64,000 nt of DNA from a phage. The stretch is taken from sequence record OZ335963.1, one strand, 5' to 3'. Shown piece by piece: positions 9,953 to 41,104 of the stretch. How positions within the stretch are numbered: position 1 is the stretch's first letter; each line of letters opens with the position of its first letter. The notes under the pieces are model-generated. The model saw only the letters and a program-made list of their open reading frames with translations. It was not told where the DNA came from and did not search any database. Made by a program: the position numbers and the translations under genes.

Positions 9953-10168
9953 TTAAGCCTTTTTATCAAGAACAGAATTCAGTTTATTAGTAATTTTGTC
10001 CAAACGTTCATTGAATTCGCTGGAGGATAAACCCTTTTCAGGAGAAATTAAACTAATCAAGAAAAATACAACAGTAAAAGGAATAAGAAAAATAGCTCCA
10101 ACTGCCATAAACAAAAAGAATGTTACGGTTGTAAGAAAATCAGCTAAACCTTTACGAAATTTATACAT
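9953..10168 (-). CDS. Small membrane protein, 71 aa
   Basis: Hydrophobic segment TTVTFFLFMAVGAIFLIPFTVVFFLISLI. Confidence 0.5.
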   Translation of the reverse strand: MYKFRKGLADFLTTVTFFLFMAVGAIFLIPFTVVFFLISLISPEKGLSSSEFNERLDKITNKLNSVLDKKA

Positions 10169-19252: not shown

Positions 19253-19660
19253 TCAATCAATTTCAATTTTACTAAATATACAGAATAAGATGGAACAGAC
19301 TATATAAGCACCACACACAGATTGAACTAATACCATTCCAAAGAACCAAACAATATTATCAAACAATGTCTGTTTTACGTCGAAAGGACGTAAACTTACA
19401 GTAATATTATCACCTTTTTCTATTGAAGAATACATCTCTGGGGAAATATATTCACTAAATCTATAACCGTCTTTGAGTTCATATACGGCAATAAACGATA
19501 AACTAGACCCTTTTCCTTGTGTTCCTGTAATGGTATTAACTACAGTAACATCATAATCTTTATAATGCATATAATCATTAATTGCGTAATAACCATATGC
19601 AACTACTACACATAAACAACATATCAATAAATTCAATCTTCTAATTATCAACCGTTTCAT
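19253..19660 (-). CDS. Membrane protein, 135 aa
   Basis: N-terminal and C-terminal hydrophobic helices (LLICCLCVVVAYGYYAI; VWFFGMVLVQSVCGAYIVCSILFCIF). Confidence 0.55.
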   Translation of the reverse strand: MKRLIIRRLNLLICCLCVVVAYGYYAINDYMHYKDYDVTVVNTITGTQGKGSSLSFIAVYELKDGYRFSEYISPEMYSSIEKGDNITVSLRPFDVKQTLFDNIVWFFGMVLVQSVCGAYIVCSILFCIFSKIEID

Positions 19661-22270: not shown

Positions 22271-23281
22271 TCATTTATAATAACTTCGGTGGTTTTCAAG
22301 ATAAACCCTCTCAAGGAAGTCATCCCAGAAACCCATGTCTACTTTTTGCTGCATACCGTTCTTAGAAGCTTCAATAGATGCTGCTTCTACTTGATCGACC
22401 ACATCTTCCAAAAACTCTTGAACAGTTTTAAATGGATGTTTACCCAACTTCACGTCGAGAATAAATGGAGCGTCTTGAAGTGGATAGACTAAGTCACCAG
22501 TTTTGTAAATTTCCAATAGTTGGAGTCCGCCACGACAAGCATGACTTAGAGCTTTCCAGTCAATGCCCTCATTCGCTTCAGCCTTACGAGCGCGTTCGCC
22601 GTATTCAGCATCTAATTTGTTCAGTGACTGCTTAAGCTCGATAAGAGAAAGCGTTGTCTGATATTTACGGCCCAACACAGTGTAGAACGTTTGTGGGCCT
22701 GTTTTCTCATGATTATGGAATACCCATTCACAGAATTCGTTCTCTGGAAGACGATGCTTAATATCTTCAACTTTAGTTCGACGCTGCTTAATGGAACCGT
22801 CTTCTTGGTAATCAACCCATTGCTCAGGGATTTGATTAACTACTTTCAATACATCACGCAATGCGGCCAAACGAGAACCCTTGACACCATATTTAGAAGC
22901 TTGCTTGCGGACATATCCTAAATAAGATTTCATGTTAGTTGTATAAAAACGAGAACGATTGTCTTGAATAAATTTCCATACATCAGGCAAATCAGATTTA
23001 ACTACCAGTTCAGGTGGAGTGTGAAGCATATCTAATGCTACGGTTTCACCATCTACTGCTAATTTAAAGAAATATTTAAGACTGTATAGTTCATGGTCAA
23101 TATCATCTTTAGTGTTTTTAGATGATGTGTTGTTGGTATTTTTACTCATATGCTCTTTAACATTTCCGATAAGAATATCACGAGCAGGAGGAACAAAGAT
23201 TTCTTTAAAATCTACATCAGATTCTGGTGTAGAAGTTCCATAAAGATGACTACCGAAATAGCTTTTCATTACTGTTTTCAT
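22271..23281 (-). CDS. Pol-beta-superfamily nucleotidyltransferase (336 aa)
   Basis: N-terminal YFGSHLYGTSTPESDVDF (GS...[DE]h[DE]h) nucleotidyltransferase signature; AAGGA RBS. Confidence 0.5.
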   Translation of the reverse strand: MKTVMKSYFGSHLYGTSTPESDVDFKEIFVPPARDILIGNVKEHMSKNTNNTSSKNTKDDIDHELYSLKYFFKLAVDGETVALDMLHTPPELVVKSDLPDVWKFIQDNRSRFYTTNMKSYLGYVRKQASKYGVKGSRLAALRDVLKVVNQIPEQWVDYQEDGSIKQRRTKVEDIKHRLPENEFCEWVFHNHEKTGPQTFYTVLGRKYQTTLSLIELKQSLNKLDAEYGERARKAEANEGIDWKALSHACRGGLQLLEIYKTGDLVYPLQDAPFILDVKLGKHPFKTVQEFLEDVVDQVEAASIEASKNGMQQKVDMGFWDDFLERVYLENHRSYYK

Positions 23282-25814: not shown

Positions 25815-26201
25815 TTATTCGAGGGAAAGAAGATATTTGCTCTGGTAAAACATCCCAGTAATATCATCTATCGTGCTTTGAATGGCTGGAGGCATTTCTT
25901 TATAAATGCTGTTAGATTGGTCTAGTATGTGATCAATCATTTTAATTGTGTCGGTAGGAAGTTTACTAGCATCTGGAATTGAAGGTGTGTATTTTCTACC
26001 AGAATACCCCAAATATTGCTCACCAAATTTATCAATCAAATCTGGCAACTCAGAGAAAATAAAATCGTATGCTTTGTGTCTAGCATAACTTTTAGTTTCA
26101 AAATGCGCAGAATGAAAATAAGCTTGTGCAGCCATTAATAAACCTAAGTATTCATCTGCCTTTGAAGGTTTTCCACTTTGTGAAAAGTCGCTGAATTTCA
26201 T
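25815..26201 (-). CDS. Hypothetical protein at T4 rI.1 position (128 aa)
   Basis: ORF immediately adjacent to rI; named by synteny only. Confidence 0.55.
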
Positions 26202-26491
26202 TCAGTCTCCAATTTAATGTTCATAATTCTAGCGTATGATTGTGCCATCTCCGCGCCTCGCTCTATACATTCAAAATCGGAAGAGCACGGGTCATTTTTA
26301 TAAGTCGTTCGCATAAAACTATAGAACTGTTCAGATGATTCTACGCTTTTATTTTCAAAAAGCATATAAACGTGTCTAATACCAGATTCCATAAATTTAT
26401 CAAAATGAGGATCGACATTCGCTTCAATTGGTGGAGACAAAGCAAACGCTAATCCTAGCATGGCAAATAGTGCCGTTGCTTTTAAGGCCAT
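26198..26491 (-). CDS. rI: Lysis-inhibition regulator rI (antiholin)
   Basis: 97 aa; MALKATALFAMLGL... signal-anchor N-terminus; matches T4 RI as recalled. Confidence 0.88.
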   Translation of the reverse strand: MALKATALFAMLGLAFALSPPIEANVDPHFDKFMESGIRHVYMLFENKSVESSEQFYSFMRTTYKNDPCSSDFECIERGAEMAQSYARIMNIKLETE

Positions 26492-27349: not shown

Positions 27350-27535
27350 TTAAAGCGTATTCACATAAGCTATTAATTCGTTTTCTTTCTTATCAAACCG
27401 ATCAGCAAATTCTTCTTGCTGATCGGGAGATAGCGGGCCATATTCATCATAAAAGGTGTTTGCTTCTGTATGCTCATCTAGAAGTTCATGGATAAGCTCA
27501 AACAATTTATCTTTTTGTTCTTTACTCAGACTCAT
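27350..27535 (-). CDS. Hypothetical acidic protein, 61 aa
   Basis: ORF immediately after tk. Confidence 0.5.
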   Translation of the reverse strand: MSLSKEQKDKLFELIHELLDEHTEANTFYDEYGPLSPDQQEEFADRFDKKENELIAYVNTL

Positions 27536-27705
27536 ATATTAATTTCCAGGAGTTTTAAAATAATTCGCTTTTGCTTAAATATTTCCACAGTTAAATGATC
27601 AGTATCTTTTTGACCGATTCCAATGGCAAAACCTTTATTAACAGCGAGTTCAATTAAATTATCAAGTTCACGTAACACTTCATATTGTAGCTCAGAACTA
27701 TTCAT
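27532..27705 (-). CDS. Hypothetical small protein, 57 aa
   Basis: Hand-translated MNSSELQYEVLRELDNLIELAVNKGFAIGIGQKDTDHLTVEIFKQKRIILKLLEINI; ATGA overlaps on both sides. Confidence 0.4.
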   Translation of the reverse strand: MNSSELQYEVLRELDNLIELAVNKGFAIGIGQKDTDHLTVEIFKQKRIILKLLEINI

Positions 27706-27929
27706 TTCGGTTTACCTTCTTTAACGAAATCAGGATAAGGATAAAATCCTGAATAAAATCCTTCACCTTTATGATTGATACATCCTTTATTAGAACAATA
27801 GCACCAATAATCGAAATCACAAGCCATTTCATCATTACATAAAGCAAAAACAACCGGCCATTCGCACTTTTCGCAGTGGGCATTTTTAAGAATACTAGTT
27901 TGACTCATAACCATGTAACCTTTAAGCAA
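27702..27929 (-). CDS. Cys-rich small protein, 75 aa
   Basis: Nine Cys including CEKCEW and CYCSNKGC; possible metal-binding. Confidence 0.5.
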   Translation of the reverse strand: MLKGYMVMSQTSILKNAHCEKCEWPVVFALCNDEMACDFDYWCYCSNKGCINHKGEGFYSGFYPYPDFVKEGKPK

Positions 27930-28117
27930 TATTCTTCTACGTGCTGTTTACGACCTTTCTTATCAATAAAGGTATATTCAACGAATGTTCCAATATAATC
28001 TTTATCTACATCATGCGGACTATTAATTGGGCATTTAGTACGGCAAATGCGTTCCCATTGACGAATAATTTCCACTTTGTTTTTAGGATCAAACGGATGC
28101 GGGTAATGTACTTTCAT
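27905..28117 (-). CDS. Hypothetical protein, 70 aa
   Basis: ORF; Cys/His-containing. Confidence 0.45.
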   Translation of the reverse strand: MKVHYPHPFDPKNKVEIIRQWERICRTKCPINSPHDVDKDYIGTFVEYTFIDKKGRKQHVEEYCLKVTWL

Positions 28118-28568
28118 AATCCACCACTATTAAATCAATATCAGGAGTAAACATGTCGATTAATTTAGAAACCTTATCCCAATCACCGCCAGCAATACCA
28201 CAACCTATGCGTGGAATGTAAATTACTGGTTTAAACAAAAGGGTTTCTGCCTGTTGATTTAATTCTATCATACAGTTTACTAAAGCACCATAATCAAGAT
28301 TAGGACCCGGTTCGTATTGCGTATACAGGTTATAGCATATACCAAATCCCGTAGGACTATGTTTAAAAACAATAGACATATCGCCTAATTTATCGCGAGA
28401 ACCGTACTCGGTAGTGGTTTTATCTATTTCTAAAATTTTGGGATAGGCTCTTGCTAATTGACCTGCTACACCAGAGCCCATTGTGTGGAAGCAATTGCAC
28501 CCGTGCGCAATAATATTACCTTGAAGAAATAGGGCGACAATATCGCCCTTGATATATTTTACAATCAT
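28089..28568 (-). CDS. Macro-domain protein (ADP-ribose binding/processing), 159 aa
   Basis: IKGDIV...HGCNCFHTMGSGVAGQL and IYIPRIGCGIAGG match the two glycine-rich macro-domain loops. Confidence 0.5.
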   Translation of the reverse strand: MIVKYIKGDIVALFLQGNIIAHGCNCFHTMGSGVAGQLARAYPKILEIDKTTTEYGSRDKLGDMSIVFKHSPTGFGICYNLYTQYEPGPNLDYGALVNCMIELNQQAETLLFKPVIYIPRIGCGIAGGDWDKVSKLIDMFTPDIDLIVVDYESTLPASV

Positions 28569-28912
28569 CTAGTACTCAATCCTCGATTATAAGAATCTAC
28601 TAAACGGTCAACCATTGAATGACAAGCGGCTTTATCTTTCTCCTCCGCAACTGAACATTCTAAGGTATTCCACTTTTTAGCATATCGTTTTAACAATGTA
28701 TCATTTTTATATCTGCTTGATTTATCTCTTTCTCCGTCTTTATATGCATATATTAATTTCTGTGCAAATTCAGCTTGGCATGCTTTATTTTTCCCGCAAT
28801 AATCCGCGGCAGTACGGTTTACATACTCTCTAATTTCAGTATATGATGTATCTGCTGATGCAGAAGCAGAAAATGAAATTAATCCTATACATAAAACCAA
28901 AATTTTAGTCAT
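28565..28912 (-). CDS. Secreted/periplasmic protein, 115 aa
   Basis: N-terminal signal peptide MTKILVLCIGLISFSASASA; four Cys in the mature part. Confidence 0.5.
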   Translation of the reverse strand: MTKILVLCIGLISFSASASADTSYTEIREYVNRTAADYCGKNKACQAEFAQKLIYAYKDGERDKSSRYKNDTLLKRYAKKWNTLECSVAEEKDKAACHSMVDRLVDSYNRGLSTR

Positions 28913-29450
28913 TTACTATTTCCAAAAGTTTATTATTTTTAAGGTAGTTAGCCTTTTCTAGGACTTCAGAAGCATATTTAGAACCTGCTTTAACATTCCA
29001 TCCCGAATTATAAGAGGATATTGCTTTTCTTATATCGCCCTTATGTATATTTAACCAATAAGAAAGTTCAATGTACGCCCAGGAAGCTGAATTGGACCGT
29101 TTATTCAACATTCTTTTTATTTCAGCATCGGTCATATTATAACCAAGTTCCTTAACTCTTGCTCGCATGGTTGGCAAATAATTTTGGAACATTCCATAGG
29201 CATGATGCTTTGGTTTAGATTTTAAATTAACTCCGGCAGAGCTTTCTTGCCATAAAATAGCAGCCATTATATGACCTAATCCGCTCTTGTGGATGTTTTT
29301 GTGTGTTTTATATTTTCCATCCTTAGAAAATTGTTCCCCGAATTGATATGCGTAACGCATGTTATCGAGTTGGACATTACTGAAAGTATGCTCGGAGCTA
29401 TGTGCCATCATTGAAATGGCCAATAGACCAGCGAGTAGTGCTTTTCTCAT
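28905..29450 (-). CDS. Secreted lytic-transglycosylase-like (SLT domain) protein, 181 aa
   Basis: Signal peptide MRKALLAGLLAISMMAHS; SLT-like motifs ILWQESS, AYGMFQ, SSYNSGWN. Confidence 0.55.
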   Translation of the reverse strand: MRKALLAGLLAISMMAHSSEHTFSNVQLDNMRYAYQFGEQFSKDGKYKTHKNIHKSGLGHIMAAILWQESSAGVNLKSKPKHHAYGMFQNYLPTMRARVKELGYNMTDAEIKRMLNKRSNSASWAYIELSYWLNIHKGDIRKAISSYNSGWNVKAGSKYASEVLEKANYLKNNKLLEIVND

Positions 29451-29457
29451 GCTTACC

Positions 29458-29919
29458 TCATTGAGTTTTAATTACTGCTTTAGAAGCCTTTCCTGGTAAA
29501 CGACGACTGTTGATAATTGCCATCCTGCATTGAAGCGACGGGTCTTTGAACTTCGCATTAGGTTTACAAACTGTAAATCCAAGCCAAAGATTTCCATCTG
29601 TGATTTCTAAACGTCCAGGACGATATTCAACCCCATCAATAAAATCCTCGTCAATGTCAGGACGTGGAGGCATACTCAGGAATTCATTAACTTCTAAAAC
29701 ATGGTCTTTTATTTTATGGAATAATTCAAAAACATATGTCTCATCAATCTCCCGTTGAATTGCACGATCAAGAAGATGCTGAGAATATTTTAGATGAAAC
29801 GATGAGACTCCTGCTGCTTTTGATGCCTCACGAATCTCATTGTTAATTTGACGAAACTCCGACTCAAAGTGACGACGGAGCTTATTTCGACGGATAAAAA
29901 CTTCTGTGTTGATAGTCAT
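29458..29919 (-). CDS. regB: Sequence-specific endoribonuclease RegB
   Basis: 153 aa; length and position match T4 RegB; sequence recognised from memory. Confidence 0.8.
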   Translation of the reverse strand: MTINTEVFIRRNKLRRHFESEFRQINNEIREASKAAGVSSFHLKYSQHLLDRAIQREIDETYVFELFHKIKDHVLEVNEFLSMPPRPDIDEDFIDGVEYRPGRLEITDGNLWLGFTVCKPNAKFKDPSLQCRMAIINSRRLPGKASKAVIKTQ

Positions 29920-29947
29920 GTTATTCTCCTCTTAACTGATAGAAAAA

Positions 29948-29976
29948 TTATACCACAGTCAAGAGGAAAAGTAAAC
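29948..29976 (-). promoter_or_regulatory. Early promoter upstream of regB
   Basis: Minus strand GTTTAC, spacer, TGGTATAAT. Confidence 0.45.
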
Positions 29977-29978
29977 AG

Positions 29979-30257
29979 TTATTCTTTAAATCTAATCAAT
30001 TTATTCATAGACTTTGAAACTTCTGCACGGACCTCATGTAGGTTTTTAAGCTGTTCAAGACGTTGCTCATAGTAAGCAATTTCATCTTCTTCAAGACAGT
30101 CCTGTGAGTCTTCTTTAAGATAACGTGCATAGTCCTGGAAAGCTTTACGGACTACTTCCTGGAAGTCATCAAGACTTTGAATTTTCTTAGGAGCAACAGA
30201 TACACGACGAGGGGCAGTATAATACTCATAACCAAACCCTGCGCTTAATTGAGCCAT
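29979..30257 (-). CDS. Hypothetical protein, about 92 aa
   Basis: Track ORF 29979-30299; the ATG at 30257 overlaps the upstream stop. Confidence 0.45.
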
Positions 30258-30523
30258 TAGTATTTTTCCTCTGGTTGAAACACAGCACGACAAGCCCACA
30301 TACTGGCTTCTTTGAGTTTCGTTTTAGCAATAGTTAACTGATCGAGGCTTTCAGCATAATTCTTCGTGAATTCACAGTCTTCACAATTATCTAGTGCTTC
30401 CCAGAATTCATCATATAAAGCATCAAAGATAAGTCCTAAACGAACTTCAGCATCTTTGATAGCATTCACTTTACTGATTTTATCGTCAGTATGTGGCTTA
30501 TAACCTTTAATGTCTTCAATCAT
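30257..30523 (-). CDS. Hypothetical protein, 88 aa; by map order this may be the T4 vs.4 (Acb2) position
   Basis: Position only (second ORF past regB toward ipII); sequence not verifiable from memory. Confidence 0.3.
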
Positions 30524-30737
30524 ATTTTACTTCCTCACCTGTTCCCAAATCATATTCAACTAAACGAATAGGTTCATGAATGCCATATCCTTGAACAGAA
30601 ATTTCTGTCGTAGGATAAATTCCATTAATATCACCCATGGTCCACGCTTCATTAAATTGCTGTTCGCCTGAATTACTAAACCACTCGGCGAAAGCATTTA
30701 ACACATCTTTAGAACCTTCAATAATTATCTTTGCCAT
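30516..30737 (-). CDS. Hypothetical protein, 73 aa
   Basis: ORF between the 88-aa ORF and the GrcA-like gene. Confidence 0.45.
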   Translation of the reverse strand: MAKIIIEGSKDVLNAFAEWFSNSGEQQFNEAWTMGDINGIYPTTEISVQGYGIHEPIRLVEYDLGTGEEVKYD

Positions 30738-31099
30738 TACAAGCTCTCAGTAAAGGTACGAGCGATAACGTCGCGCTGCTGTTCCGGAGTCAGAGAGTTA
30801 AAGCGAACTGCATAACCGGATACACGGATGGTCAGCTGCGGATATTTTTCCGGATGCTTAACTGCATCTTCCAGAGTTTCACGACGCAGAACGTTAACGT
30901 TCAGGTGTTGACCACCTTCAATTTTAACTGTAGGCTGTGGTTCAATTTCAATTTCACGGGTGTGCAAACCGTAGAAAATTTCTGGGTCTACAAAAGAGTC
31001 CTCTTTAAAGGTTTTAGAAACAATAATTCGTGCTTGAATACCATCTTCAAAATAAATAGTACCTTTATGTGTGCCTTCAAGAATTTGATATGCTTTCAT
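30737..31099 (-). CDS. Autonomous glycyl-radical cofactor (GrcA/YfiD-like), about 120 aa
   Basis: C-terminal ...[60 protein letters not shown] carries the RVSGY glycyl-radical motif; ATG at 31099 with GAGAGG RBS. Confidence 0.8.
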
Positions 31100-31107
31100 A
31101 TAACCTC

Positions 31108-31434
31108 TCAATTAGAAAATAAATTTATCCAAGATTGCTCTTTAATTAAAAATGGCTCAGAATCATATGCCATTAAACTTTGGGTGATTAGTCCTTTAAA
31201 AGGTCCATCAATAAATTCCATGGTAAAATATGGAATTTTATTCATTAATCTTGCATTAGGAGCAGTGCACAAAACTCTGCATCCTTTGAATACGCCTTTT
31301 TGTAATTTGTACTGCTTAGGATAAAATTCGCTCAAGACGTTGTTATTTGCCAAAATTTCAAAATGATTCACCAACTTATTTTTAATAGTTTTTGGCGAAA
31401 AATAAAGATATTCGAAAAGTTGCGTATCTGTCAT
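31108..31434 (-). CDS. Hypothetical protein, about 108 aa
   Basis: Track ORF 31108-31488 has a 5' extension; probable start [10 protein letters not shown]. Confidence 0.45.
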
Positions 31435-32024: not shown

Positions 32025-32215
32025 TTCTGTATTTACCCATTACCGCACTTGGGCTCGACCTTATTACAGGTTGGCGGGAATCCCTCATAGAATCATGAGG
32101 TCCAGGTTGTTCCCATGTTATTTGAATGTAAATATTTTTGCCGTAATACTATACCAGTGTGGCTTCATTAAAATTTTTTCATTGAGTCATTTTACCTCTC
32201 CAAGTAATTATGAAT

Positions 32216-32245
32216 ATACTATCACAATTTTAGGAGAAAGTAAAC
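32216..32245 (-). promoter_or_regulatory. Early promoter upstream of ipII
   Basis: Minus strand GTTTAC, spacer, TAGTAT. Confidence 0.4.
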
Positions 32246-32247
32246 TG

Positions 32248-32550
32248 CTATTTACCTTTAATTACTTTAGCTGCTTCGATAGCCGCTTGCTGAAGGTCGT
32301 CCATAGACATACCGAATTTAGAAGCAAAGTTATCAATTTTCTTTTCGACAGCATTCAAAGGCTTGGCCTGTTTACCTTCATTAGCGCCAGGAAGAGCGAG
32401 AATACGCTCTTTGTCAATATAAAGGCTTACAAGTTTCTTACGGTCTTTATCGGACAAATCATGAAATGAATGAGCCTTTTTATTTATAGCGGCTTCTAAT
32501 TTACTCGCAGTTACGCGGGCTTCAGTGATAAATTCTTGATAGGTTTTCAT
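32248..32550 (-). CDS. ipII: Internal protein II (head-packaged, injected)
   Basis: 100 aa; N-terminal capsid-targeting leader MKTYQEFITEA; position next to ipIII and e. Confidence 0.85.
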   Translation of the reverse strand: MKTYQEFITEARVTASKLEAAINKKAHSFHDLSDKDRKKLVSLYIDKERILALPGANEGKQAKPLNAVEKKIDNFASKFGMSMDDLQQAAIEAAKVIKGK

Positions 32551-38810: not shown

Positions 38811-38886
38811 TGGTCGAGGCAGTAGGGATCGAACCTACGACCTAGGACTTAGAAGGTCCTTGCTCTTCCTTCTGAGCTATGCCTCG
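38811..38886 (-). tRNA. tRNA-Arg (anticodon UCU)
   Basis: Hand-folded cloverleaf; anticodon loop CTTCTAA; T-loop GGTTCGATC; CCA encoded. Confidence 0.85.
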
Positions 38887-38890
38887 TATT

Positions 38891-38965
38891 TGGCGGACAT
38901 GCATGGATTCGAACCATGGACCAATTGATTAACAGTCAACTGCTCTACCACTGAGCTACACATCC
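38891..38965 (-). tRNA. tRNA-Asn (anticodon GUU)
   Basis: Hand-folded cloverleaf GGATGTG...; anticodon loop CTGTTAA; T-loop GGTTCGAATCC; CCA encoded. Confidence 0.7.
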
Positions 38966-38969
38966 AAAT

Positions 38970-39056
38970 TGGTGGGGAGTGATGGAGTCGAACCACCCGA
39001 GTCGCAATGACAATGGATTTACAGTCCACACCGCTACCTCTACGGGATAACTCCCC
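38970..39056 (-). tRNA. tRNA-Tyr (anticodon GUA), long variable arm
   Basis: Anticodon loop CTGTAAA; long variable arm as in bacterial tRNA-Tyr; CCA encoded; D-arm is atypical. Confidence 0.55.
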
Positions 39057-39069
39057 TTAATTCTTAATT

Positions 39070-39144
39070 TGGTGGCCCTGGGTGGAATTGAACCACCATC
39101 TGGCGATTATGAGTCGCTTGCTTGAACCTTCCAGCTACAGGGCC
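39070..39144 (-). tRNA. tRNA-Ile (anticodon CAU; Met/Ile not distinguishable from sequence)
   Basis: Anticodon loop CTCATAA; Ile assigned by analogy with T4 tRNA-Ile. Confidence 0.75.
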
Positions 39145-39145
39145 T

Positions 39146-39221
39146 TGGTGCTGATTGACGGAATCGAACCGCCGACATCCTCATTACAAGTGAGGTGCTC
39201 TACCTACTGAGCTAAATCAGC
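39146..39221 (-). tRNA. tRNA-Thr (anticodon UGU)
   Basis: Cloverleaf GCTGATT...; anticodon loop CTTGTAA; CCA encoded. Confidence 0.85.
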
Positions 39222-39226
39222 AAAAC

Positions 39227-39316
39227 TGGCGGAGGCGATAGGATTTGAACCTATGAGTCGCCGGAGCGACTGCCGGTTTTCAAGACCGGTGCATTAAACC
39301 ACTCTGCCACGCCTCC
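39227..39316 (-). tRNA. tRNA-Ser (anticodon UGA), long variable arm
   Basis: Cloverleaf GGAGGCG...; anticodon loop CTTGAAA; CCA encoded. Confidence 0.85.
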
Positions 39317-39318
39317 AG

Positions 39319-39392
39319 TCTCCGCGGCAGGATTTGAACCTGCGACATTCTGCTCCCAAAGCAGACGCTCTACCAAACTGAGCTACACGGAG
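39319..39392 (-). tRNA. tRNA-Pro (anticodon UGG), CCA not encoded
   Basis: Cloverleaf CTCCGTG...; anticodon loop TTTGGGA; abuts tRNA-Ser as in the T4 Pro-Ser dimeric precursor. Confidence 0.85.
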
Positions 39393-39402
39393 TAAATTAA
39401 AT

Positions 39403-39476
<74 letters not shown>

Positions 39477-39481
39477 AAATT

Positions 39482-39568
39482 TGGTGCGAGAAGTGGGACT
39501 CGAACCCACAAGGAAATCATTCCGCAGCATTTTAAGTGCTGTGCCTTTACCAATTTGACCATTCTCGC
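39482..39568 (-). tRNA. tRNA-Leu (anticodon UAA), long variable arm
   Basis: Cloverleaf GCGAGAA...; anticodon loop CTTAAAA. Confidence 0.85.
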
Positions 39569-39569
39569 G

Positions 39570-39642
39570 CTGGGAATAAAGGACTCGAACCTTTGCATCT
39601 AGCAGTCAAAGTGCTATGCCTTACCAACTTGGCTAATTCCCA
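39570..39642 (-). tRNA. tRNA-Gln (anticodon UUG), CCA not encoded
   Basis: Cloverleaf TGGGAAT...; anticodon loop CTTTGAC; first tRNA of the cluster. Confidence 0.85.
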
Positions 39643-40540: not shown

Positions 40541-40956
40541 CCTTCATCAATAATAGTATGCGTATTGGCATTTACAATTTGCCACCAATCAAAGCGATTG
40601 GAACCATACATCGGTTTGTTTTCATTTTCTTTGATGATGTCACGGAGTTCATCTTCAGTGGCGGCTTTCGCGATTAAATCAGCATATCCACCACGAGGAT
40701 AATAATTATCACCTGCAAAAAGTAAAAAGTTTGGTTTAATGTTATTGAACTCTTCAAGAGTAATAACTTTTCCTGACGGTTGAACAATCTCTACATATTT
40801 ATATCCCAATTTTTGAGCCGCATCTACTGCTTCAAGCAAAGTATCATGAGCCCATCCAATTTGACAACCTGGCTTTTCAGATGGATTAGCCTGATAATCC
40901 GCATACACTTTATACATTCTATTCACCTTTAGAAATTTTATCCATAACAATAGCAA
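40537..40956 (-). CDS. Hypothetical protein, 126-139 aa
   Basis: ORF; probable start at the internal MYKVYADY. Confidence 0.5.
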   Translation of the reverse strand: MLLLWIKFLKVNRMYKVYADYQANPSEKPGCQIGWAHDTLLEAVDAAQKLGYKYVEIVQPSGKVITLEEFNNIKPNFLLFAGDNYYPRGGYADLIAKAATEDELRDIIKENENKPMYGSNRFDWWQIVNANTHTIIDEG

Positions 40957-41104
40957 TTAAACCAATTAAAAATGCTACTACAAGTGAAAACACATTTTCT
41001 GCTGTAGTCAATAATCCGCATATAAATCCAACAAACATTGAAAAACTAAAAGCGGAAGCAGAAATTGCAATAGCAACATTTCGAATTAATTCACAACGTT
41101 TCAT
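40919..41104 (-). CDS. Small membrane protein, 61 aa
   Basis: Two hydrophobic helices; follows a promoter and a GAGGAG RBS. Confidence 0.5.
   Translation of the reverse strand: MKRCELIRNVAIAISASAFSFSMFVGFICGLLTTAENVFSLVVAFLIGLIAIVMDKISKGE

Follow-up and report, generated by a model that had tools for sequence, protein, structure and literature searches.

The 64,000-nucleotide stretch of phage DNA analyzed here (sequence record OZ335963.1; ‘the window’) carries, at 28089-29450, three overlapping minus-strand open reading frames (ORFs) which synteny and the annotation of Escherichia phage PP01 and T4 identify as the T4 genes tk.4, vs and vs.1. These are very probably three consecutive, translationally coupled early T4-like genes, of which tk.4 encodes a macro-domain protein acting against DarTG2, vs.1 an exported transglycosylase, and vs a small protein that looks exported. 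A first-pass annotation, made from the letters of the sequence, had proposed a macro-domain protein next to two signal-peptide proteins, one of them lytic-transglycosylase-like. All three genes are already catalogued in T4, for which these proposals are already known: the macro (A1pp) and SLT predictions for the products of tk.4 and vs.1 were published in 2006 (PMC1524935). Gene identity, folds, motifs and conservation were established in the present analysis, and the anti-DarTG2 phenotype of the T4 allele is taken from the literature.

The genome is that of a Tequatrovirus. Bases 27500-30500 of the window are 97.7-98.3% identical at the nucleotide level to their best matches (among them Shigella phage ESh36 and Escherichia phage PP01), and for this interval 440 records reach 95-99% identity. 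At the protein level, identity to T4 is 100% for Vs, 99.4% for Vs.1 and 99.3% for RegB, and 56.6% for Tk.4. The block is flanked by regB (29458-29919; Pfam REGB_T4 1.4e-68) and by tk.3 (DUF7202), so that the order of transcription is regB, vs.1, vs, tk.4, tk.3. The stop of vs.1 overlaps the start of vs by 8 nucleotides (ATGACTAA), that of vs overlaps the start of tk.4 by 4 nucleotides (ATGA), and every start comes with a Shine-Dalgarno-like sequence of its own. Of the strong sigma-70-like sites, the nearest lies upstream of regB and could drive regB-vs.1-vs-tk.4; it is a consensus match only, promoter-like matches in this region being no more numerous than in shuffled sequence.

The assignment of Tk.4 to the macro domains, as first-pass annotation had it, is well supported, and the domain matches in this block lie far outside what chance would give. 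The protein matches Pfam Macro (PF01661) with E=3.4e-8 (a score of 33.9 bits where 22 is the cut-off, with 116 of the 118 profile positions covered) and phrog_335 with E=1e-71, and sequence matches in the PDB include BT1257 (1.2e-9), yeast Poa1p (1.5e-9), SCO6735, the Mycobacterium tuberculosis (Mtb) DarG macrodomain (3.5e-5) and human TARG1 (0.01). In both PADLOC and NCBIfam the top match is DarG, for this allele as for that of T4; the E-values for Tk.4 are 1.6e-7 and 3.7e-7, respectively, with the macrodomain part of the models alone being aligned (about model positions 2-145). Both glycine-rich loops are present, i.e., MGSGVAG (residues 30-36) and IGCGIAGG (residues 121-128). In loop 1, which aligns with N22 and MGKGIA of DarG, residues H22, G23, N25 and C26 are found in 118 of 120 homologues (the other two are gapped) and G33 and A35 in all 120. 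The counterparts of loop 2 are PRIGCGLAGGKW in BT1257 and SCO6735 and PRIGCGLDRLQW in TARG1; here P119 and W130 are kept in 120/120 homologues, and G122 and G124 in 119/120. The DarG sequences used in the alignment (Mtb and Thermus aquaticus, Taq) were checked against PDB 5m3i and 5m31, and the TARG1 sequence was confirmed against the PDB over its C-terminal part only. The residues that are invariant in the family are all retained in this allele. Thus, Tk.4 appears to be a stand-alone macro domain of the ALC1/TARG1/DarG-like class, by every indication cytoplasmic.

The product of vs.1 carries the motifs that had been read as SLT-like, namely ILWQESS (residues 65-71), AYGMFQ (84-89) and SSYNSGWN (145-152). 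Its match to Pfam SLT (PF01464; residues 61-154) has an E-value of 4.8e-5, with 23.4 bits against a cut-off of 21.3, and was likewise noted to be marginal in an earlier study (PMC1524935); the match to its PHROG family has an E-value of 5.6e-69. Across 30 homologues, with identities down to 41%, residues E69, G86, F88, Q89, Y147, N148 and G150 are invariant. The AlphaFold model, with a predicted local distance difference test (pLDDT) score of 88.5, has a lysozyme-like GH23 fold, is matched by Foldseek to MltD and Slt, and sets the N-terminus apart as a separate low-confidence helix; a signal-like N-terminus is present in 30/30 aligned homologues. A PDB sequence search with Vs.1 returned nothing meaningful (best E 0.84), and a literature search for experiments on Vs.1, its activity or its phenotype returned nothing relevant. 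Relatives occur in 2085 phage records, including T4-like phages, Ackermannviridae (Cba120) and smaller phages of about 85-89 kb that infect Salmonella, Erwinia and Escherichia.

These features suggest that Vs.1 is a Sec-exported, periplasmic family-1 lytic transglycosylase or GH23-type muramidase, in which Glu69 would serve as the catalytic acid for cleavage at the MurNAc-GlcNAc bond in host peptidoglycan. With the family-1 lytic transglycosylases (E. coli Slt70, MltC and MltE; P. aeruginosa MltF and Slt) it has in common the GH23 fold, the E-S, G-x-x-Q and Y-N-x-G motifs and predicted periplasmic targeting. Unlike them, it is a single minimal domain of approximately 163 mature residues, lacking a lipid anchor as well as superhelical and LysM domains. 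It also differs, as had been proposed, from endolysin e (GH24, no signal peptide) and from the virion lysozyme gp5 in being the product of an early phage gene.

The second signal-peptide protein, which the first-pass annotation described as a Cys-containing protein of 115 residues and did not recognize, is Vs itself: it is 100% identical to T4 Vs and matches phrog_1256 with E=1.7e-39, and its homologues carry PF26829 (ValRS_modifier). Signal peptides were called with a crude heuristic of our own and from alignments, the features looked for being a positive n-region, an uncharged hydrophobic h-region of at least 10 residues, small residues at –3 and –1, and conservation across homologues. This heuristic passed 7 of the 138 ORFs of at least 60 residues, including Vs, Vs.1 and RI; Tk.4 was a borderline false positive. 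The lysis-inhibition gene rI (26198-26491, minus strand), with its known signal-anchor-like N-terminus, served as the positive control, and ORFs at 9953-10168, 19253-19660 and 40919-41104 also passed. By this heuristic and by the alignments, Sec features are present in both of the N-termini that had been taken for signal peptides.

In Vs, the N-terminus has Lys3, an uncharged hydrophobic core and a predicted cleavage site ASA|D. Among 13 homologues its sequence is variable and its character constant, and the Ala at –1 (Ala20) is invariant in 13/13; the two most distant relatives (27-28% identity) retain a signal-like N-terminus, in one of them with a lipobox, LSGC. A lipoprotein form of T4 Vs itself, modified at Cys8, was rejected, since Cys8 lacks conservation and LVLC does not qualify as a lipobox. 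Four Cys residues characterize the family (C39, C45, C86 and C97): all are invariant in the 13 closer homologues, and the third is displaced by a few positions in the two most distant ones, the other three being strictly invariant. AlphaFold models residues 21-115 as a four-helix bundle, mostly with pLDDT>90, and residues 1-20 as disordered, with pLDDT <50. In this model the Cys pairs would fall at the turns between helices H1 and H2 and between H3 and H4, so that two disulfides could form; the predicted mature protein is 11.0 kDa. A fold search with the model gave no informative match, and a PDB sequence search nothing meaningful (best E 0.5). For both Vs and Vs.1, PADLOC and NCBIfam gave no credible match. 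An exhaustive HMMER profile search with the Vs alignment, covering 1.84 billion representatives, returned 8 proteins, all of them Vs homologues or fragments from T4-like phages, and so there are no bacterial relatives from which a function could be borrowed. A literature search for a signal peptide or localization of Vs returned nothing relevant.

Several points count against the reading of the three products given above, one of them concerning Vs. The gene, lying immediately after vs.1, encodes a 13 kDa protein annotated as a modifier of host valyl-tRNA synthetase, i.e., of a cytoplasmic target, and the putative export of Vs conflicts with this; further, the signal-peptide calls for Vs and Vs.1 rest on our own heuristic and on conservation rather than on a validated predictor. 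That Vs is cytoplasmic and binds valyl-tRNA synthetase as annotated, its N-terminus being no working export signal or the pool being exported only in part, is a contender that we place just short of even. The annotation is of long standing, resting, as the work is cited in PMC8076793, on Müller & Marchin 1975, 1977. On minimal medium, growth of a T4 vs knockout is poor, as would suit a role connected with translation. The size of the factor isolated from infected cells is put at about 10 kDa, which, if right, would fit processed Vs. Set against a cytoplasmic Vs are the invariant –1 Ala of the signal-like N-terminus, the persistence of a signal peptide in the 27-28%-identical relatives (one with the lipobox) and in an Acinetobacter phage member, and the conservation of the Cys residues, as are the insolubility of His-tagged full-length Vs in the E. 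coli cytoplasm (PMC8076793) and the sequence record of 1986, in which the ORF was named only ‘ORF 60.9’, the vs label having been added later.

The pairing of vs.1 with vs bears on the same question. The pair, with its stop/start overlap, is conserved at all of these distances, being kept in two distant metagenomic T4-like contigs and in Acinetobacter phage AB-Navy71. In AB-Navy71, the 108-residue ORF after vs.1 is a Vs-family member (hhalign 97.8%, E=1.1e-12) with a signal peptide and four Cys. In the Ackermannviridae phage Cba120, orf113 (213 residues, at 2070-2708 of the Cba120 sequence compared), which overlaps the end of the Vs.1 homologue orf114, is unrelated to Vs and has no signal peptide; the pairing thus does not extend to this phage, which is not T4-like. 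Because T4-like genomes are generally syntenic, the pairing is moderate evidence only.

In sequence there is no difference from T4 Vs (PF26829), and the conflict lies between an annotation that names a cytoplasmic partner and the signal peptide, the four Cys and the pairing with Vs.1. Its sequence gives Vs the look of a four-helix protein of about 11 kDa, exported and carrying two disulfides, and these features fit an exported protein better than a cytoplasmic partner of valyl-tRNA synthetase; we regard this as an unexplained conflict and not as a refutation. Tentatively, Vs may be an exported, disulfide-stapled periplasmic protein that works with Vs.1 (as a regulator, an inhibitor or a partner, for instance), in which case the valyl-tRNA synthetase label would have been misassigned or would stem from association in extracts or from a minor unprocessed pool. 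T4 Spackle (Sp), a small, all-helical early protein with a signal peptide, is a periplasmic inhibitor of the gp5 lysozyme, and offers an analogy for how Vs could act on Vs.1.

For Tk.4, the first-pass suggestion that a phage macro domain could reverse host ADP-ribosylation matches genetics published for T4. In a transposon screen of T4, tk.4 was the single gene needed on a host expressing DarTG2, and a clean tk.4 knockout was sensitized to DarTG2; the gene was renamed adfM, for anti-DarT factor Macrodomain (bioRxiv 10.1101/2025.11.20.689424). The AdfM of phage PhiKZ removes ADP-ribose from DarT2-modified DNA in vitro (PMC13309987). Tk.4 would remove the ADP-ribose that DarT2 places on thymidines of phage DNA. 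The allele studied here has in common with T4 Tk.4/AdfM its locus between tk.3 and vs, phrog_335, the length class and the invariant motifs HGCNC, MGxGxA, NxYTQ and PxIGxGIAGGDW; it differs in being 56.6% identical at the protein level, and the anti-DarTG2 phenotype belongs to the T4 allele only.

Tk.4 was also compared with the bacterial antitoxin DarG (M. tuberculosis / T. aquaticus; PDB 5m3i, 5m31). Common to the two are a homologous macrodomain, the loop-1 Asn and the GxG...GG.W design of loop 2, and T4 Tk.4 opposes DarT2 in vivo, as DarG does. Tk.4 differs in having no C-terminal DarT-binding domain (159 residues versus about 330-340), in scoring 29.7 against the 250-bit equivalog cut-off (NF048014 / PDLC02990), with model positions 2-142 of 338 aligned, in having Gln84 at the Lys80 position, and in having no darT beside it, its neighbours being vs and tk.3. 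A DarG orthologue was accordingly ruled out on three features: the full-length equivalog score, the catalytic Lys and an adjacent darT.

The exchanged residue is a family property that speaks against simple DarG-like chemistry. The N-x-Y-T-Q motif, with Gln84 in 120/120 homologues, is aligned against NFPTKK in DarG and LITKK in TARG1. The assayed enzyme, PhiKZ AdfM, carries an FPTK of the DarG type and is only about 21% identical to Tk.4, and for these two reasons its activity is not simply transferable to Tk.4. Given Gln84 at the Lys position and the distance to PhiKZ AdfM, a hydrolase mechanism for T4-type Tk.4, and with it hydrolase chemistry for this allele, is something that we infer. PhiKZ gp104 AdfM (PMC13309987), compared at 22518-23006 of its own stretch against 28089-28568 of the window, is likewise a stand-alone phage macrodomain of similar size that counters DarT2 and goes by the same name; yet it has the FPTK catalytic Lys where Tk.4 has YTQ, and BLASTP aligns just 33 residues. 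Judged by sequence, the two proteins published as AdfM, i.e., PhiKZ gp104 and T4-type Tk.4, are members of different macrodomain subfamilies. As a lesser point, since the catalytic lysine of DarG is missing, T4-type AdfM would counter DarT2 by chemistry unlike that of DarG and PhiKZ AdfM.

The best N-terminal sequence match of Tk.4 is the yeast ADP-ribose-1''-phosphate phosphatase Poa1p, so that a small-molecule substrate is also possible. Tk.4 might then process small ADP-ribose derivatives (as an ADP-ribose-1''-phosphate phosphatase or O-acetyl-ADP-ribose deacetylase) or only bind ADP-ribose, with protection from DarTG2 being indirect. The match to Poa1p covers the N-terminal half of Tk.4, with a common H-x-C-N-C motif, T4 Tk.4 is annotated in RefSeq as a phosphatase with an A1pp motif (PMC1524935), and the invariant Gln takes the place of the Lys that is catalytic in DarG and TARG1. 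We nevertheless consider this alternative unlikely, as tk.4 was the single significant hit for DarTG2 and the clean knockout sensitized T4, DarG is the closest match in both defence-oriented libraries, and the loop-1 Asn, a residue type that was mutated in active PhiKZ AdfM, is conserved.

For Vs.1, too, the distinction between lytic transglycosylase and hydrolase is a prediction, as are export and muralytic activity. That it is an inactive peptidoglycan-binding protein, or a true hydrolase such as a goose-type lysozyme, appears improbable: conservation of the E-S, G-x-x-Q and Y-N-x-G motifs that typify family-1 lytic transglycosylases is complete or almost complete, its top structural matches are mostly lytic transglycosylases, and the invariance of Glu69 speaks against an inactive protein.

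The divergence of tk.4 from T4 is confined to the gene. Nucleotide identity to T4, taken along a 60-nucleotide sliding frame, drops to 38-75% at about 28090-28500, whereas vs, vs.1 and regB stand at 93-100% and most of tk.3 at 93-95%; the first 40 or so codons of tk.4, and the residues they encode, are nearly unchanged. Because the drop is restricted to the body of tk.4, with its start and flanks nearly unchanged, this phage carries a different tk.4 allele, apparently swapped in by recombination. The allele is a common one, with a copy at least 95% identical in 271 records of the phage collection; most of the other matches (2371 records) are less than 60% identical, a band that includes T4’s own allele (56.6%), and at the protein level a graded series of alleles in public data runs through 82, 76, 65 and 58% identity. 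A terminator-like hairpin lies within the conserved 5' end of tk.4 (RNA fold –14.3 kcal/mol, z=–2.18), which might explain its conservation at the nucleotide level. It is very unlikely that Tk.4 mainly reverses or tunes ADP-ribosylation or RNAylation by the phage’s own Alt, ModA and ModB instead of countering host defence: T4-like phages do encode three ADP-ribosyltransferases (cited in PMC9503650) and macro domains occur in 41% of myoviruses (PMC9503650), but the only reported tk.4 phenotype is DarTG2-specific, nothing in this analysis ties tk.4 to alt or mod, and a sharply divergent allele fits an arms race with the host better than a housekeeping role.

A single functional module comprising tk.4, vs and vs.1 was considered and rejected. 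The genes are distributed differently (2794 phage records for tk.4, 796 for vs and 2085 for vs.1), a phrog_4957 gene separates tk.4 from vs in distant relatives (the two metagenomic contigs), and only the vs.1-vs pairing is conserved. Since the phyletic distributions differ and Tk.4 appears cytoplasmic, the three genes do not form a unit: they are neighbours in a long early transcription unit and not a demonstrated functional module. The coordinates of all features are collected in Table 1.

Table 1. Positions in the window of the tk.4, vs and vs.1 genes and of associated features
Feature	Position	Strand	Basis
tk.4 (adfM), 159-residue stand-alone macro-domain protein	28089..28568	-	ORF, Pfam Macro, phrog_335
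vs, 115 residues, annotated valyl-tRNA synthetase modifier	28565..28912	-	T4 Vs identity, phrog_1256, PF26829 in homologues
vs.1, 181-residue secreted SLT-type enzyme, predicted lytic transglycosylase	28905..29450	-	
Tk.4 loop 1, H22-G-C-N25-C...M30-G-S-G-V-A-G36, ADP-ribose-binding GxG loop and conserved Asn	28461..28505	-	
Tk.4 loop 2, P119-R-I-G-C-G-I-A-G-G-D-W130	28179..28214	-	
Codon of Tk.4 Gln84, the residue aligned with the catalytic Lys in DarG (K80) / TARG1 (K84)	28317..28319	-	alignment
Sharply bounded patch divergent from T4, coinciding with the body of tk.4	28090..28500	.	60-nucleotide sliding identity
GC-rich 8-bp hairpin followed by UAUUUCUU, a U-rich tract, in the conserved 5' end of tk.4 just past the vs stop	28531..28549	-	terminator-like match
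Vs residues 1-20 (MTKILVLCIGLISFSASASA), predicted Sec signal peptide, cut after Ala20	28853..28912	-	heuristic and conservation
Vs.1 residues 1-18 (MRKALLAGLLAISMMAHS), predicted signal peptide	29397..29450	-	heuristic, candidate cleavage after Ser18
Vs.1 SLT domain, residues 61-154, with E-S, G-M-F-Q and S-Y-N-x-G motifs	28989..29270	-	Pfam SLT
Vs.1 Glu69 codon, predicted catalytic acid in W-Q-E-S-S	29244..29246	-	invariant 30/30; codon read from sequence
Sigma-70-like promoter candidate upstream of regB	29947..29975	-	TTTACT-17-TATAAT, extended TG, 10/12 matches

Several observations were made on the surrounding genes. In the interval between tk and tk.3 (27350-27929), T4’s tk.1 is absent and, as in PP01, extra small ORFs are present; one product there, a Cys-rich protein of 75 residues (27702-27929), matches Pfam Phage_zn_bind (4.3e-29). 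On the other side, the vs.4 homologue (30257-30523, minus strand; 88 residues) matches Pfam Acb2_Tad1_hairpin (1.3e-19) and is an Acb2-type cyclic-nucleotide sponge against CBASS, so that regB, vs.1 and vs lie between two counter-defence genes, tk.4 and vs.4. The vs.6 homologue (30737-31111, minus strand) matches Pfam Gly_radical (2.8e-18) and resembles GrcA, a spare part for pyruvate formate-lyase or NrdD-type enzymes. Downstream of vs.8, at about 32100-32500, synteny with T4 breaks and the denV region is unmatched; beyond vs.8 the alignment to T4 is limited to short pieces matching its ipII and ipIII/e intergenic regions. The match to PP01 ends at 32119, save for one 86-nucleotide piece beyond, and the PP01 genes that follow vs.8 are ipIV and ip10, which suggests a variable internal-protein cassette downstream of vs.8. 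Farther away, at 38811-39642 (minus strand), clustered genes for 10 tRNAs (Arg, Asn, Tyr, Met(CAT), Thr, Ser, Pro, Gly, Leu and Gln) account for a local GC peak of 0.433. T4 has 8 tRNA genes, and Asn and Tyr would then be extra in this phage.

The first-pass annotation thus re-discovers three catalogued T4 genes, whose domain content was published in 2006 and of which tk.4 (adfM) had its anti-DarTG2 function reported in 2025. Here, tk.4 stands out as a hypervariable cassette in a near-identical region, which is how a counter-defence gene engaged in an arms race would be expected to look. The name AdfM now covers two unrelated macrodomain subfamilies, and the DarG-like hydrolysis proposed for T4 still rests on inference. 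For Vs, with an assignment that has stood in textbooks for 50 years, resolving the localization would either correct the T4 annotation or reveal an unusual localization.

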